From: a virus | Taxonomy: Duplodnaviria; Heunggongvirae; Uroviricota; Caudoviricetes | Virus record (IMG/VR): IMGVR_UViG_2671180608_000010 | DNA: 8,128 nt | Direction: 5' to 3' (one strand) | In this document: one piece after another, positions 3,068 through 8,128 of the stretch | Layout: each line of letters opens with the position of its first letter | How positions within the stretch are numbered: position 1 is the stretch's first letter | The notes under the pieces: model-generated | Database searches by the model: none | Told to the model about the DNA's origin: nothing | Seen by the model: the letters and a program-made list of their open reading frames with translations, nothing else | Program-made: the position numbers and the translations under genes

Positions 3068-3889
3068 TTACCTAGTTACCTTTTTTAACTGCCGCTCAGC
3101 CCATGCTTCTTCAATATCAAACCGGGTCACCAGCGCATCATAAAATTTCTTAACTGTTTTTTCCCATGACGCGCGTGTTATCTGGTTTGTCACCTCGCAT
3201 ATAGCATTAAATGCCTCCGTTGATGGTAGTCTTTCATAGCCACGACCACCACAACGCTGGCAGTCTCTGATAACAGGCATACCACGTTTTACCGACTCTT
3301 CACGATGAATGGCGACACCACGCCCACGGCAATCCTTACAGGCGGTGGAAACCTCACCCTTTCCGCCACACTCCGGACAGGCAACTTTTACCACCTCCCT
3401 GACTTTTTTCCATTCTTCCCAGTAAGACGGATACACACCTTTCGTACACTTTGCCCATACCGGCGGCTTACCATCCGGATACTGGACCTTGTTTGTAAAA
3501 ACTACGCTTTCAATAAATTTTTCCCCATAGCAACAAGGGCACTGCTTTTTACTCGCTGCGCTGCGGGCATAATCCTCAAAAGCGTACGAAGCCATAATGC
3601 GCATCACTACCGGTTTTATTTCTGCCGGAAGTTTTCTCAACGCCGCCACACGATCGCACCGACTGAGTGCATAATCTGCCAGTAATTCTGTTGCCCGCGC
3701 CCTGTCATTCATACTGATGCCCATTTTCCCCAGGAACGCAGAAAACCCCATCTCAGCCCGATTCTGTGTCATGCCCTGCGCGGCCATCACATCAGTGATA
3801 CTCAGCGCATCTTTTGACGTTGAGGCCGATGCATCGGTCAGGCAAGGGGATTTTGGGGAGTAGTATTTCGGTAAATCTTCCAGTTTCAT
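3068..3889 (-). CDS. Q: Late-gene antitermination protein Q (lambda Q family, long variant with Cys-rich zinc-binding region)
   Basis: 273-aa ORF. N-terminus (MKLEDLPKYYSPKSP...TDVMAAQGM) and C-terminus (YDALV) align by memory with lambda Q; several CxxC pairs. Start ATG overlaps the upstream rusA-type stop (ATGA). Confidence 0.85.
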   Translation of the reverse strand: MKLEDLPKYYSPKSPCLTDASASTSKDALSITDVMAAQGMTQNRAEMGFSAFLGKMGISMNDRARATELLADYALSRCDRVAALRKLPAEIKPVVMRIMASYAFEDYARSAASKKQCPCCYGEKFIESVVFTNKVQYPDGKPPVWAKCTKGVYPSYWEEWKKVREVVKVACPECGGKGEVSTACKDCRGRGVAIHREESVKRGMPVIRDCQRCGGRGYERLPSTEAFNAICEVTNQITRASWEKTVKKFYDALVTRFDIEEAWAERQLKKVTR

Positions 3890-4863: not shown

Positions 4864-4918
4864 CAGTCAGGCCGGGGGATTTTGGGGAGTAGTATTTCGG
4901 TAAATCTTCCAGTTTCAT
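4864..4918 (-). pseudogene. 5' fragment of a Q gene (first 18 codons MKLEDLPKYYSPKSPGLT), then masked and divergent; recombination scar
   Basis: DNA near-identical to the start of Q at 3889-3838. After the N-run the reading frame gives unrelated sequence and stops at 4706. Confidence 0.6.
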
Positions 4919-4947
4919 TTTTTGACCTGCCCTTCAAGCATTATGGG
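4864..4947 (-). repeat. Duplicated rusA-3'/Q-5' junction, copy B
   Basis: Near-identical to 3838-3918, read directly. Confidence 0.8.
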
Positions 4948-5295
4948 ATAAATCTTCACCCCCAGACGTCCACCAGATACTGGCTGAGCACGAACGATAT
5001 TGATTTCATCAAACTGCTCATCGTCCATTAGCAACCCCGCATGCGTCAGCGCATCCAGCGGCGCTTTCAGAATATTGTCCAGGTCACGGCGGCGCTTATC
5101 CGGTGGTTCTGCAATAATTTTTATTGCCAACCTTCCGGACAGGCTTAATTTCAGCCGCTGCTGGCGAACAATAAGCGCCACTGCCCGGCGATAACGCTCC
5201 CCGGCTTTTGATACAAAATATGTGCTGCCACGACGACGCCAGTAAGTGTTCACCGTCGGCGGGTAAGGTAAAACAAATTCTATGCGCTCGGTCAT
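4915..5295 (-). CDS. rusA: Crossover junction endodeoxyribonuclease RusA (Holliday junction resolvase), 126 aa
   Basis: Aligns by memory with E. coli RusA: LPYPPTVNTYWRRR..., PDKRRRDLDNILKA..DALT.AG...DDEQ, GGRL. Start abuts the DUF968 stop (TAAATG). Confidence 0.9.
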   Translation of the reverse strand: MTERIEFVLPYPPTVNTYWRRRGSTYFVSKAGERYRRAVALIVRQQRLKLSLSGRLAIKIIAEPPDKRRRDLDNILKAPLDALTHAGLLMDDEQFDEINIVRAQPVSGGRLGVKIYPIMLEGQVKK

Positions 5296-6354
5296 TTATG
5301 CTTTCCACTTCAGAACACCCGAATTTCTCGCGTGCATTAAAAAACGAATCAGCAACAACAGCTGACTGCCGTGTTTCTCTTCAAAATCTTTTACTCCGGC
5401 ATGTAGTTCGTTACGGCATTTACGGCATAACGGAATAACAAACAAATCATCAGCCTTTGTTCCCATCCCTCCCAGTCCATGACCAATGATGTGATGCGGA
5501 TCATCTGCCTGATTGCCACACGTCATGCATTTCTGCGTTTTTACCCAGCGCGTGTATACAGGCATCTCTTCCCGTTGTGATTTCTGGCGCTGGAGATACT
5601 GAGCCGGTGACTCCGGATCAACGGCAATGCTGACCACCGTCTTTTCCTGTGGTGGGTTCTGTTGCTGGTGGACGTGAGGCAGTAACGCAATATTTTTTGT
5701 GCGCTGCTTCAGTATGCTGGTGGCTGTCTGCTCTCCCGGTATGATGTCGCTTTCACTGTACACAGAGCGAATTTTTTCCGCACGCAACCCCAGCGAACGA
5801 CGTAATACCGCTTCCGGTAGCGCGTCCGCCACCTGATTGCGGACCGCCCACCAGGATAATTCAGCCAGAGATAATTCACGCTCCTGCGTACCGCTTATTG
5901 CGTGACCGATGACGTCAATCATCCATGCTGACAGGTTTTGATGAGCAAGTTGCTCGAGTGATTCGGATGTCTGGTCACGCAGCTGGTTGTCGCAGTGCCA
6001 GCACAACACCATTGCGCCGGTACCATAACGGTGAATGACGGTTTCGCTGTGATGATAATCGCCGTGTGGCCACTGGCAGGATTTAATATGGCGCAACAGC
6101 CAGTCAGACAATGCACCAGCACCACCAGCAGCACGAATCACCCGTGCGTTACTGAAAAACGGCAGCAATGTTTTGTCTTCCACCAGCGGCTGGCGAGCGG
6201 CAGGAACGACCCCGGACGGCAGATTACGCATGCTTTTTGGTTCCGGCTCCACCAGTATTCTGCCGTTATGGAATGCTGACATTGATTCACGGCCTGGCTT
6301 AACGATAACCAGACCGAGTTCCGGTACCAGAACAGGTCGAAGTAATACCCGCAC
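5296..6354 (-). CDS. DUF968-family prophage protein with C-terminal HNH-like Cys/His motif (YdfU-like), 352 aa from a GTG start
   Basis: C-terminal CMTCGNQADDPHHIIGHGLGGMGTKADDLFVIPLCRKCRNELH matches the DUF968 signature. GGAGG lies 4 nt upstream of the GTG; true start could be the ATG 24 codons in. Confidence 0.8.
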   Translation of the reverse strand: MRVLLRPVLVPELGLVIVKPGRESMSAFHNGRILVEPEPKSMRNLPSGVVPAARQPLVEDKTLLPFFSNARVIRAAGGAGALSDWLLRHIKSCQWPHGDYHHSETVIHRYGTGAMVLCWHCDNQLRDQTSESLEQLAHQNLSAWMIDVIGHAISGTQERELSLAELSWWAVRNQVADALPEAVLRRSLGLRAEKIRSVYSESDIIPGEQTATSILKQRTKNIALLPHVHQQQNPPQEKTVVSIAVDPESPAQYLQRQKSQREEMPVYTRWVKTQKCMTCGNQADDPHHIIGHGLGGMGTKADDLFVIPLCRKCRNELHAGVKDFEEKHGSQLLLLIRFLMHARNSGVLKWKA

Positions 6355-6429
6355 ATTACCTCCAGATCCGTTGCTGGAATGTGCGGGACGGACGCGTTGG
6401 CCGTTCGGAGTAAGGGAGCCTGACGGAGA

Positions 6430-6711
6430 TTATCCAGTGACGGTAGTCGAGGCTAAGGGCTTTTTTAACCTCGCATCCGCGCCTGCGGTAACACTGAATG
6501 AGCCATTCGGCCTGTTCTTCAGTGCATGGGGGATGCTGGTACCAATCAGATTTAAATGCGTGAGAGCGCCGCCCGTGCCTGCTGGCAAAGACGGCTGAAT
6601 TATCAGAATTGTGTAGTCTGGAAGGCAGTGGCTGACAATAGCGCCATTCTCAACGCGCACAGTATAGAGGCCATCTTCACTAAAAATTTCACGTAATTCT
6701 TCGATTTTCAT
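6430..6711 (-). CDS. Hypothetical 93-aa protein (MKIEELREIFSEDGLYTVRVENG...), in the position rem occupies in Qin-type prophages
   Basis: ORF with GGAAGGA about 8 nt upstream of the ATG at 6711. Sequence equivalence to Rem is not claimed. Confidence 0.5.
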   Translation of the reverse strand: MKIEELREIFSEDGLYTVRVENGAIVSHCLPDYTILIIQPSLPAGTGGALTHLNLIGTSIPHALKNRPNGSFSVTAGADARLKKPLASTTVTG

Positions 6712-6793
6712 CAACAGAATCCTTCCAGATAAATAGCACTCCCCTGTTCGGGGTCCATCCCTCTTCTCCCTGCGCGCTACTTAAGTATTTTTG

Positions 6794-6824
6794 ATTCTAT
6801 TCCGGCACCATCTAAAACTTCAAA
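6794..6824 (-). promoter_or_regulatory. Candidate sigma70 promoter (TTGAAG, 18-nt spacer, TAGAAT) for the 6430..6711 gene
   Basis: Hexamers read on the minus strand directly after the hok terminator. Confidence 0.3.
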
Positions 6825-6830
6825 CGCGTT

Positions 6831-6861
6831 GAAAATAAAAACAAAAACCCGCCGAAGCGGG
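6831..6861 (-). terminator. Intrinsic terminator of the hok transcript
   Basis: Minus-strand hairpin CCCGC-UUCG-GCGGG (6848-6861) followed by UUUUUGUUUUUAUUUUC. Confidence 0.65.
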
Positions 6862-6931
6862 TTAAGTGTGGGTGCATTGAGGATGCCTGACCCATCAGAG
6901 GTGGCGAGGGATTTCTCCCCCGCCTGGTCTC

Positions 6932-7087
6932 TTACTCCTCAGGTTCGTAAGCTGTGAAGACAGCGACCTCCGTCTGGCCGGTTCGAATTCGTACCTCGCA
7001 GAGGTCTTTCCTCGTTACCAGTGCCGTCACAATGACGGTTAAACAGATGACGATCAGGGCGATTAACATCGCCTTTTGCTGCTTCAT
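6932..7087 (-). CDS. hokD: Hok/Gef-family membrane toxin, 51 aa (HokD/RelF-like)
   Basis: MKQQKAMLIALIVICLTVIVTALVTRKDLCEVRIRTGQTEVAVFTAYEPEE matches the Hok family from memory. AAGGAG 9 nt upstream. The 70-aa track ORF is an in-frame upstream ATG extension. Confidence 0.85.
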   Translation of the reverse strand: MKQQKAMLIALIVICLTVIVTALVTRKDLCEVRIRTGQTEVAVFTAYEPEE

Positions 7088-7298
7088 AGCCTGCTTCTCC
7101 TTGCCTTTCGGCACGTAAGAGGCTAACCTAGATTTGCCGTTCATAGATTGAGCCTCAGATTAATGTTAAGCGTCTTGCCGGACGCGTAATGTTAACTGGG
7201 GCTTTTCTCTATCTGCCTTTTGGTGTTCATGCCTGAGACAGATAGCCTCAAGCACCCGCTGCAATTCTACTTAACTCTCCTTTTCCCGCAAACCGTTT

Positions 7299-7382
7299 TT
7301 ATCCCCAGCGGCAAATCGAATACACCACCAGCGCCACCGCCATCGCAATTCCTACCGTTGTTAATGCTTCAGGCCAGGTCAT
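7299..7382 (-). CDS. Candidate 27-aa hydrophobic peptide [27 protein letters not shown], start overlapping the ORF-C stop (ATGA)
   Basis: Translated by hand; not in the ORF track (too short). One predicted transmembrane segment. AGGA precedes an internal ATG. Could be a non-translated leader. Confidence 0.3.
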
Positions 7383-7723
7383 CGTAAAATATCCTCCACG
7401 CTTATCAGTCCGTTCCGCTCCAGATAACTCATCGCCTTATCCGGTAATTTGCAGTCTGGCTTCGCTTTCCTCAGTTGCCAGGTTAACTGCTTTACCAGCA
7501 TGGTTAACTCATCGACCAGACGCTGATATCCCACTGGTTTGTATTCATGCAATTTACCGGCTGGCTCTGCTGCCAGCGATACCAGTGCGATTTCCAGAAC
7601 AGCAATATCCATCTTATATGTGCGGATGATGTCATGGTCGATTGTGCCCGGTATGCACAGTCTCTGTGCTTCAATAGTCTCCTCTGCGTGAGCTATTAAC
7701 TGCTCTCTGGTAAAAGTCGTCAT
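7379..7723 (-). CDS. Hypothetical 114-aa protein ORF-C; N-terminal domain paralogous to ORF-B
   Basis: ORF whose ATG overlaps the ORF-B stop (ATGA). Shares MTT(I/F)T(K/R)E and M(E/D)(L/I)A..(I)AL.SL.AEP motifs with ORF-B. No family recognised. Confidence 0.6.
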
Positions 7724-7887
7724 GCCGTAGCCCCTTCTTGATATTTTTCAAACCAGAACACAACCGGCTCTGCTTCCAGCGATGCCAGCGCAATCCGTGC
7801 CAGTTCCATTTGTTCACCACGGGTAAGCCCGTTTTCAAGCGGGTTTTTAATGAACAATTCAATACGTTCTTTGGTAATAGTGGTCAT
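7720..7887 (-). CDS. Hypothetical 55-aa protein ORF-B ([55 protein letters not shown]), absent from the ORF track
   Basis: Translated by hand. Perfect AGGAG 6 nt upstream of the ATG, immediately after the ORF-A stop. Stop overlaps the ORF-C start. Confidence 0.5.
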
Positions 7888-7897
7888 GTGTTACTCC

Positions 7898-8128
7898 TTA
7901 ACCCGCAGTGCTTTCAACTGATGAGGGGAACAAAATCTTTTCATCAAACCCTGCATTCATATCATGAACAGCAACACACCAATCCATCGACGAACGATTA
8001 TCAAGAGCCTCCATGATTTCATCCATGCGGCGTAGGTCATACAGGTAAATGCTTTTATCGCCAATGGTGTAAAAGCCAATTTTTTTCGGTGATGGATGAG
8101 GTGTACTGGCAATAGCGGACACTACCAT
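7898..8128 (-). CDS. Hypothetical protein ORF-A, at least 76 aa, possibly truncated by the window edge
   Basis: ORF ending TAA at 7898-7900, directly followed by the ORF-B RBS. An ATG sits exactly at the window edge, so the true N-terminus is unknown. No family recognised. Confidence 0.4.
   Translation of the reverse strand: MVVSAIASTPHPSPKKIGFYTIGDKSIYLYDLRRMDEIMEALDNRSSMDWCVAVHDMNAGFDEKILFPSSVESTAG

Follow-up and report, generated by a model that had tools for sequence, protein, structure and literature searches.

Several small single-pass membrane proteins of bacteria, among them KdpF, AcrZ, MgtS and MgrB, modulate larger membrane proteins. The members of this class have fewer than 50 residues, one transmembrane (TM) helix and almost no soluble part, have a Shine-Dalgarno (SD) sequence and start codon of their own, carry conserved small-residue packing faces and were missed by annotation pipelines. 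Very short frames have also been described within phage lambda's exo-xis region, where orf2311 (7 amino acids) and orf2313 (31 amino acids) were shown by ribosome profiling to be translated (PMC8614690). Here we analyze a small open reading frame (ORF) of 27 codons, located at 7299..7382 on the minus strand of a stretch of 8,128 nucleotides (nt) from a virus of the Caudoviricetes (IMG/VR record IMGVR_UViG_2671180608_000010), hereafter called the window, which shares all of these features with the KdpF class. A preliminary description of the window had presented the small ORF as an unannotated membrane peptide coupled to the upstream gene ORF-C, and had proposed that it was of a kind typical of type I toxins and holin-like effectors, which next to Hok would place two membrane-active peptides in a single transcription unit. 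The comparison of homologous loci indicates that the small ORF is a real, widespread and overlooked micro-gene, ordinary in kind. We consider it probable, from sequence features, that it is a genuine self-contained phage gene for a translationally coupled single-pass membrane micro-protein, which would act by helix packing and not as part of hok/sok.

Both the ORF listing and the reading of the sequence place the ATG of the small ORF at 7382-7380 and its TAA stop codon at 7301-7299, so that the start, the length and the stop at 7299 given in the preliminary description were correct. The gene immediately upstream is ORF-C (7379..7723, minus strand), the last large gene before the small ORF, which encodes an Ea22-family mosaic accessory protein of 114 amino acids (phrog_660, function unknown) and is called a hypothetical protein by PGAP in the near-identical prophage L001. 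The TGA stop codon of ORF-C (7381-7379) lies inside the ATG of the small ORF, forming an ATGA start/stop overlap (7379..7382, minus strand), and a SD sequence, GGAGG (7393..7397, minus strand), is found 10 nt 5' of the ATG within the last codons of ORF-C (..VEDILR*). The ATGA overlap is the geometry expected for translational coupling, and together with GGAGG it supports the proposed coupling to ORF-C. The length of 27 codons alone is no more than would be expected by chance, since 33 ORFs of at least 20 amino acids overlap 6000..8128; the conservation of the small ORF in 209 homologous loci, on the other hand, is far beyond chance.

The 209 homologous copies were assembled from reference phages and from IMG/VR. 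All of them showed an ATG start, exactly 27 codons and no insertion or deletion, and the stop codon, TAA in 198 copies and TGA in 11, did not change position. At the nucleotide level the set comprises 67 different sequences, encoding 32 different intact peptides, and the pairwise amino-acid identity between some copies is as low as 41-48%. The ratio of non-synonymous to synonymous polymorphism (pN/pS) was 0.30 in the frame of the small ORF, the two remaining sense frames giving 1.09 and 1.99. In a minimum spanning tree of the unique sequences the third codon position took 147 of the 230 changes, and the synonymous fraction reached 0.57, where equal rates would give 0.24 (binomial p = 3e-25); transition bias and recombination are left out of account in this test, although the effect is nonetheless large. 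The replacements along the tree were hydrophobic-for-hydrophobic. The small ORF is under purifying selection at the protein level, with its length fixed at 27 codons.

The translation signals are conserved as well. A SD core of at least 4 nt was present in 204 of the 209 loci, with GGAGG or a longer match in 181, and the spacer was 7 or 10 nt long in 187. The upstream stop codon overlaps the start of the small ORF in 199 loci, as ATGA in 157 and by 1 nt in 42; the 1-nt overlaps, where inspected, belong to an allele beginning MNWPEAF, in which an additional in-frame ATG would bring back the ATGA arrangement. In this allele (phage BP-4795, L004 1498-1584, and 42 loci) the second in-frame ATG stands one codon 5' (..gaaATGATGAAT..), giving a possible product of 28 amino acids, MMNWPEAF.., which has been annotated once as ASL58468.1 and whose start restores the ATGA overlap with the DUF551 stop codon. 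An ORF of 55 amino acids on the opposite strand (7220..7387, plus strand), which spans the putative hok promoter and the small ORF, was also considered and rejected as non-coding, its pN/pS among homologues being 2.44. Long opposite-strand ORFs have been annotated over the same region in Stx2 phage I (ORF-38) and Min27 (ORF82) and are probably spurious.

The hydrophobic core noted in the preliminary description was evident in the Kyte-Doolittle profile. The best 19-residue mean was 2.16 (residues 6-24), and among the 43 ATG-initiated ORFs of 20-40 amino acids in the window no other reached 2.0; a 19-residue mean of at least 1.73 was found in all 32 alleles. Thirty of the 32 have exactly one acidic residue near the N-terminal end, one basic residue near the C-terminal end and an uncharged core. 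Residues M1, W3, R25 and W26 are invariant, P4, A6, G11 and A17 are nearly invariant, and A15, S22, C24 and Y/F21 are strongly conserved, while the bulky hydrophobic positions 7-10, 12, 14, 16 and 18-20 exchange V, I, L, M, F, A and T freely. When set out on a helical wheel, the small residues that are conserved fall on two faces, A6/A13/A17/C24 and T8/G11/A15/S22, suggesting the signature of tight helix-helix packing. The peptide is predicted to form a single TM helix from residue 6 to residue 24, with Trp3 at one membrane interface and Trp26 at the other. According to the positive-inside rule, the acidic residue 5 and the N-terminal end would be periplasmic, and Arg25 and the C-terminal end cytoplasmic. 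A product of no more than 50 amino acids, one predicted TM helix, translation signals of its own and conservation as a protein place the small ORF among the small membrane micro-proteins.

There is no sequence relationship between the peptide and the KdpF class, the best match to the NCBIfam KdpF model having an expect value (E) of 0.12, far below the cut-off; unlike the members of that class, the small ORF is phage-borne, mobile and always found behind an Ea22-family gene. It resembles lambda orf2311 and orf2313 in being a very short, overlooked frame, and it belongs like them to the early accessory region with Ea22 in lambdoid phages, but these two have direct translation evidence and the small ORF is predicted to be translated. 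In lambda no homologue of the peptide was found downstream of ea22. The Hok/Gef toxins (PF01848, with Mok and Sok) are likewise small hydrophobic inner-membrane peptides of prophages, and hok adjoins the small ORF here and in about one third of the sampled loci. In contrast to Hok, of about 50 amino acids, the 27-residue peptide shows no homology to that family and has no periplasmic Cys-containing domain; the small ORF shows no sign of an antisense RNA or of a folded, silenced mRNA, would be translated by coupling to the upstream gene and lies outside the hok transcript. Phage holins have in common with the peptide that they are phage-encoded and possess a TM helix. Holins are typically two to five times longer, usually of about 60 amino acids or more, with a charged C-terminal tail, and are encoded with an endolysin downstream of Q, whereas the small ORF is upstream of Q and the C-terminal end of its product has only 3-4 residues.

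The genes upstream of the small ORF encode mosaic Ea22-family accessory proteins of 114-325 amino acids made of shuffled modules, many of them with a common N-terminal motif; reference records call them Ea22, EaA, DUF551 or hypothetical. In the window (7379-8128, minus strand) and in the 209 loci the same short modules, including ..NFRENKNSSTNNFREI.. and the DUF551 core, are rearranged in dozens of ways. At least three of the C-terminal modules that precede the small ORF are unrelated to one another: DUF551 (..PEPPQEVNQ*) in 99 loci, the ORF-C type in 69 and the 933W L0139 type in 9. The small ORF stands directly behind a gene of the Ea22/EaA/DUF551 family and overlaps its stop codon, as in an Ea22-type (exo-xis-like) array. 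The sequence on its other side is equally diverse, with a hok/sok promoter in 74 of the 209 loci, a DUF4222 gene in 72 (its ATG about 5 nt after the stop codon of the small ORF), GC-rich hairpins in about 29 and a mixture of other sequences in the remaining loci. One allele was seen behind each of the three upstream classes named above, and what follows it can be hok, either hairpin type or other sequence. Megablast matches of the window to other phages break at the ATG (query 419, corresponding to 7382) and just past the stop codon (query 502/503, corresponding to 7299/7298). The breakpoints at both borders and the presence of one allele in mixed contexts indicate that the small ORF is an independent cassette.

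The distribution of the cassette was examined by database searches. With tblastn the peptide was found in 95 of 50,697 phage records, 92 of which matched at least 80% of its length, and in 181 plasmids, all 181 matching at least 80%; the plasmids are mostly non-mobilizable and of about 90-100 kb, and the one examined in detail (NZ_CP023961.1, L217) has an IncY replicon, as in P1-like phage-plasmids. The allele of the window was detected by blastn in at least 1,637 of 5,426 complete E. coli genomes, and the copies of the gene in these genomes number roughly 3,100. The cassette is carried by lambdoid prophages, those encoding Shiga toxin (Stx) among them, by the lytic rV5-like phages Av-05 and TH18, and by IncY P1-like phage-plasmids, whose hosts are E. 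coli, Salmonella, E. albertii and E. fergusonii. With both lytic phages and phage-plasmids among its carriers, it crosses phage lifestyles. In TH18 (L005), in Av-05 (L215; rV5-like Vequintavirinae) and in the IncY plasmid the micro-gene again overlaps an EaA/DUF551 stop codon. A scan of one genome per species returned only Escherichia and Shigella, besides two tiny contigs assigned to Acinetobacter idrijaensis (L014, 369 bp) and Xanthomonas pisi (L016, 431 bp), in which the copy is 77% identical to the query peptide. The Xanthomonas pisi contig also has hok/sok-leader sequence, and both contigs are most likely contaminating E. coli or Stx-phage DNA. No copy was found in K-12 CPS-53 downstream of the DUF551 gene yfdS. 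Secondary tblastn matches of the form '..FSICRWCS' are a chance match of 8 residues on the opposite strand of the sok/hok leader. The two records of VT2-Sakai differ in this region: AP000422.1 (60187-60225) matches residues 14-26 only and NC_000902.1 (57873-57950) matches residues 1-26, and the shortfall of AP000422.1 may be a sequence difference or an error in the older record.

The small ORF is present in the Shiga-toxin phages 933W, VT2-Sakai, VT1-Sakai, BP-4795 and Min27, yet it is absent from their annotation. The RefSeq/PGAP and reference phage records that were inspected leave an empty gap of about 85 nt in its place, so that the term "unannotated" used in the preliminary description holds for these records; it does not hold for a few GenBank submissions, which list the 27-residue product as 'prophage protein', 'bacteriophage protein' or 'hypothetical protein' (for example AOM45384.1 and CAL6704654.1). 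In a protein collection clustered at 90% identity, the 27-residue peptides are grouped under DUF551 representatives that lack the peptide, so that the peptide carries the label 'DUF551 domain-containing protein', which is misleading. No paper mentioning the peptide was found by a search of the literature with its sequence, nor is it mentioned in the 2021 review on the exo-xis region (PMC8614690). Searches with the peptide against Pfam, NCBIfam, PADLOC and PDB sequences returned nothing above threshold; the only PHROGs match was weak and to phrog_4612, of unknown function (E 0.011), and the glycine-zipper region DUF883_C of Pfam was matched weakly, below threshold (E 0.029). The peptide belongs to no curated family and is here classed as a new, uncharacterised small single-pass membrane protein.

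The identification of Hok as the neighbor of the small ORF was confirmed. The mok/hok reading frames of this type I toxin (6932..7144, minus strand; hok ATG at 7087) matched Pfam HOK_GEF with E 3e-23 and the MokW-like phrog_251; the gene is called hokD by PGAP in prophage L001, which is 99.7% identical, and phage 933W has sokW annotated at the corresponding position. The Rfam sok model (RF01794) matched the strand of the hok-mRNA leader, the Sok target region, over its full length (7082..7257, minus strand; 112.4 bits, E 1.2e-26). This match starts at 7257, 42 nt after the stop codon of the small ORF, indicating that the hok transcript begins about 42 nt past it. The hok promoter is likely to lie in the 42-nt gap and to end 6 nt before 7257. 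The candidate (7264..7291, minus strand), proposed from the start of the leader and the sequence of the gap, consists of a -35 element TTGCGG (7291-7286), a 16-nt spacer and a -10 element TAGAAT (7269-7264); a consensus promoter scan did not call it, its -35 element matching at only 3 of 6 positions. A terminator-like hairpin with a T-run (6846..6863, minus strand) closes the hok transcript and is the first terminator-like site 3' of the small ORF. Since a scan of the window found no such site between ORF-C and this terminator, read-through from the upstream operon into hok is possible. To this extent the proposal of a single transcription unit with Hok stands; against it, hok has a likely promoter of its own and lies 3' of the small ORF in only 74 of the 209 loci. 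The small ORF is neither inside the hok transcript, whose leader starts at 7257, nor always accompanied by hok, and the match to phage ArgO145 ends just after its stop codon, without hok. The small ORF and hok/sok are separate modules that are adjacent only through module shuffling. In the public record of phiSTEC1589-Stx1c (PQ600364.1, L009 1795-1950) the 156-nt hok gene is mislabelled 'tail fiber protein'.

On the view taken in the preliminary description, the peptide would damage membranes alongside Hok from one unit, whether as a killer resembling type I toxins or as a pore former resembling holins. A small hydrophobic membrane peptide is indeed what a type I toxin would be, and the size, single TM helix and very low charge resemble those of short type I toxins; the small-residue faces and the sub-threshold DUF883_C match would fit an oligomeric pore; hok lies directly 3' in about a third of the loci, with no terminator-like site between the two in the window; and lambdoid early operons are known to carry host-killing functions. 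The other properties of such systems were not found, however. The sok/hok leader at 7082-7257 was all that an Rfam scan (E up to 0.1) showed, with no match over 7299-7382, and no promoter-like site occurs on the plus strand near the small ORF, leaving no sign of an antisense RNA. The mRNA is unstructured, the fold of 151 nt having -32.1 kcal/mol compared with a mean of -37.5 for shuffled sequences (z = +1.52), a result by which a structured-RNA reading of the small-ORF region was also rejected. The ribosome-binding site is not sequestered, GGAGG being strong, exposed and combined with start/stop coupling, and no Hok/Gef (PF01848), Pfam, NCBIfam or PADLOC family was matched above threshold. As for a holin, the small ORF lies upstream of both RusA and Q, outside the lysis cassette, and its 27-residue product ends in CRWG. 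Moreover, 135 of the 209 copies have no hok downstream, and the small ORF is found in lytic rV5-like phages and P1-like plasmids. A toxin or holin function is unlikely in view of these results, and the peptide is probably not a Hok-like killer.

Other explanations do not require a functional peptide. Gene-boundary 'linker' sequences have been proposed for lambdoid mosaicism, and the conserved 84 nt could be mainly a homology patch of this kind, in which the frame is incidental or weakly selected. Like a linker, the small ORF is a short conserved sequence between unrelated modules with recombination joints at its edges: mosaic breakpoints occur at both ends, one allele is combined with many different neighbors on either side, and chimeric alleles (MSWPEAL.. 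and MTWPEAL.., and an amber codon that appears on two backbones although the upstream flank is the same) suggest crossovers in the conserved 5' end. What separates it from a linker is the clear protein-coding substitution pattern. In a pure homology patch, change would not be gathered at third codon positions, nor would pN/pS be held at 0.30 only in this frame; in addition, exactly 27 codons are kept in copies that have diverged to 41-48% protein identity, TAA and TGA are exchanged at one position, and SD and ATG are kept in nearly every copy, which makes the linker explanation very unlikely. Still less probable is that the act of translation matters and not the peptide, by blocking Rho termination, protecting the 3' end or modulating the hok promoter or the start of the next gene. 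The small ORF is usually the last frame of an Ea22-type array and is followed by a promoter, a tightly spaced gene start or a hairpin, as this explanation would have it; yet the invariant or nearly invariant W3, P4, A6, G11, R25 and W26 and the hydrophobic core would be needless for ribosome traffic, and the downstream contexts are too diverse for one regulatory target. Finally, the small ORF could be a decaying remnant, that is, a C-terminal tail that a frameshift severed from a formerly longer protein, or else a frame that ribosomes normally enter from the upstream gene through programmed frameshifting, an explanation to which the database clusters joining the 27-residue sequence with DUF551 proteins give some color. 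The clustered DUF551 proteins lack the peptide, so that the grouping is an artefact of partial gene calls, and a fused DUF551-peptide ancestor was rejected for the same reason. At least three unrelated upstream C-terminal modules, with differing geometries (4-nt overlap, 1-nt overlap and 4-nt gap), precede the small ORF, which means that there is no constant frameshift relationship, and no fused version occurs in the 209 loci. We regard a remnant as scarcely credible.

Some observations weigh against a self-contained gene for a membrane micro-protein. The IMG/VR loci were retrieved by peptide motifs and ranked by match quality, so that the sample leans to intact copies; the phage and plasmid tblastn counts are a less biased support. 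The antisense frame that shares the third codon positions showed a pN/pS of 0.29, practically that of the small-ORF frame because these positions are shared, and the ratio cannot settle the strand, which is instead taken to be decided by the conserved ATG, SD, stop position and length. The conservation in homologous loci that the preliminary description had proposed as a check holds in that there are no indels and pN/pS is low, but it is broken in 13 of the 209 copies by TAG at codon 3 (TGG to TAG, a W3 amber), the other 24 codons being intact. Twelve of these copies occur in one POCJ13-type context and one in phiSTEC1589, and they indicate that the small ORF is dispensable or was lost in at least one lineage, while it is otherwise maintained. 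The loci concerned are Shigella phage POCJ13 (L007 1501-1584), phiSTEC1589-Stx1c (L009 1501-1584) and 11 from IMG/VR. The amber codon rides on two differing peptide backbones, both behind the same upstream flank (..gaaggaggtacgccaATGA..), suggesting one amber mutation that would have been spread by a crossover within the small ORF. In the Sakai genome the small ORF lies in prophage Sp5 on the minus strand (NC_002695.2, 1305785-1305868). Neither the peptide nor these coordinates appear in the accessible parts of the supplements of Hücker 2017 (Sakai RIBOseq), Neuhaus 2016 (EDL933) and Fesenko 2024 (Enterobacteriaceae micro-proteome). For Sakai and EDL933 this absence is weak evidence, as the cultures are not described in the accessible material as phage-induced, the copies are multi-mapping and prophage genes are repressed. 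Conserved small-residue faces are also typical of pore-forming oligomers, and a membrane-damaging activity would fit them too.

For the coupled membrane micro-protein, which we favor, the following mode of action may be proposed. Ribosomes finishing ORF-C, the last Ea22-family gene, would re-initiate at the overlapping ATG, and the 27-residue peptide would enter the inner membrane as one helix. There it would most likely pack tightly against itself or against a host or phage membrane protein while the early accessory genes are expressed, helix-helix packing being the most likely mode since the small residues are conserved and the bulky positions vary freely. Such a mode would be like that of the known bacterial small membrane proteins, which modulate larger partners. 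The peptide may have its role in exclusion, in the lysis-lysogeny balance or in host takeover.

The rest of the window, on the same strand, is a lambdoid nin-type region that encodes DUF968/HNH and RusA proteins, the antiterminator Q and, downstream of Q, a DNA methylase of 475 amino acids (features at 1231-2655, 3071-3889, which is Q, 4918-5295 and 5299-6354, all on the minus strand). Both the small ORF and hok are upstream of RusA and Q in this prophage. The window and prophage L001, otherwise 99% identical, diverge right after the hok terminator (from 6843 leftwards), where L001 has a lipoprotein-like ORF of 130 amino acids and the window a different ORF of 94 amino acids (6430..6714); similarity returns at about 91% over DUF968 and RusA. 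This divergence indicates that the hok terminator is another mosaic joint. The 3' end of the hok mRNA with its terminator (6842-6923, minus strand) gave a weak, sub-threshold match to Rfam isrK (25.7 bits, gathering score 50), which is probably a mere resemblance of hairpin plus terminator.

These results correct the tempting view that the locus holds a second toxin in the hok unit. They also provide a rule for annotation, namely a 27-codon frame of the form M-x-W-P-[ED]-A...R-W-x-stop that overlaps the stop codon of an Ea22/DUF551-type gene. The location of the small ORF, in the early accessory region of Shiga-toxin phages, is medically relevant. The exo-xis region influences the lysis-lysogeny decision and hence the release of Shiga toxin (PMC10834534, PMC8614690), and a conserved membrane micro-protein coupled to the last gene of the region is an obvious candidate player. 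We tentatively suggest, as a possibility that is itself rather doubtful, that the peptide may be the constant, overlooked partner of the hypervariable Ea22-family genes in lambdoid phages (Stx phages included), phage-plasmids of the P1 type and lytic rV5-like phages, binding a specific inner-membrane target of the host or anchoring the upstream protein, and so swaying an early decision in infection. If it were such a partner, superinfection exclusion, the lysis-lysogeny balance or host takeover would be influenced by it.

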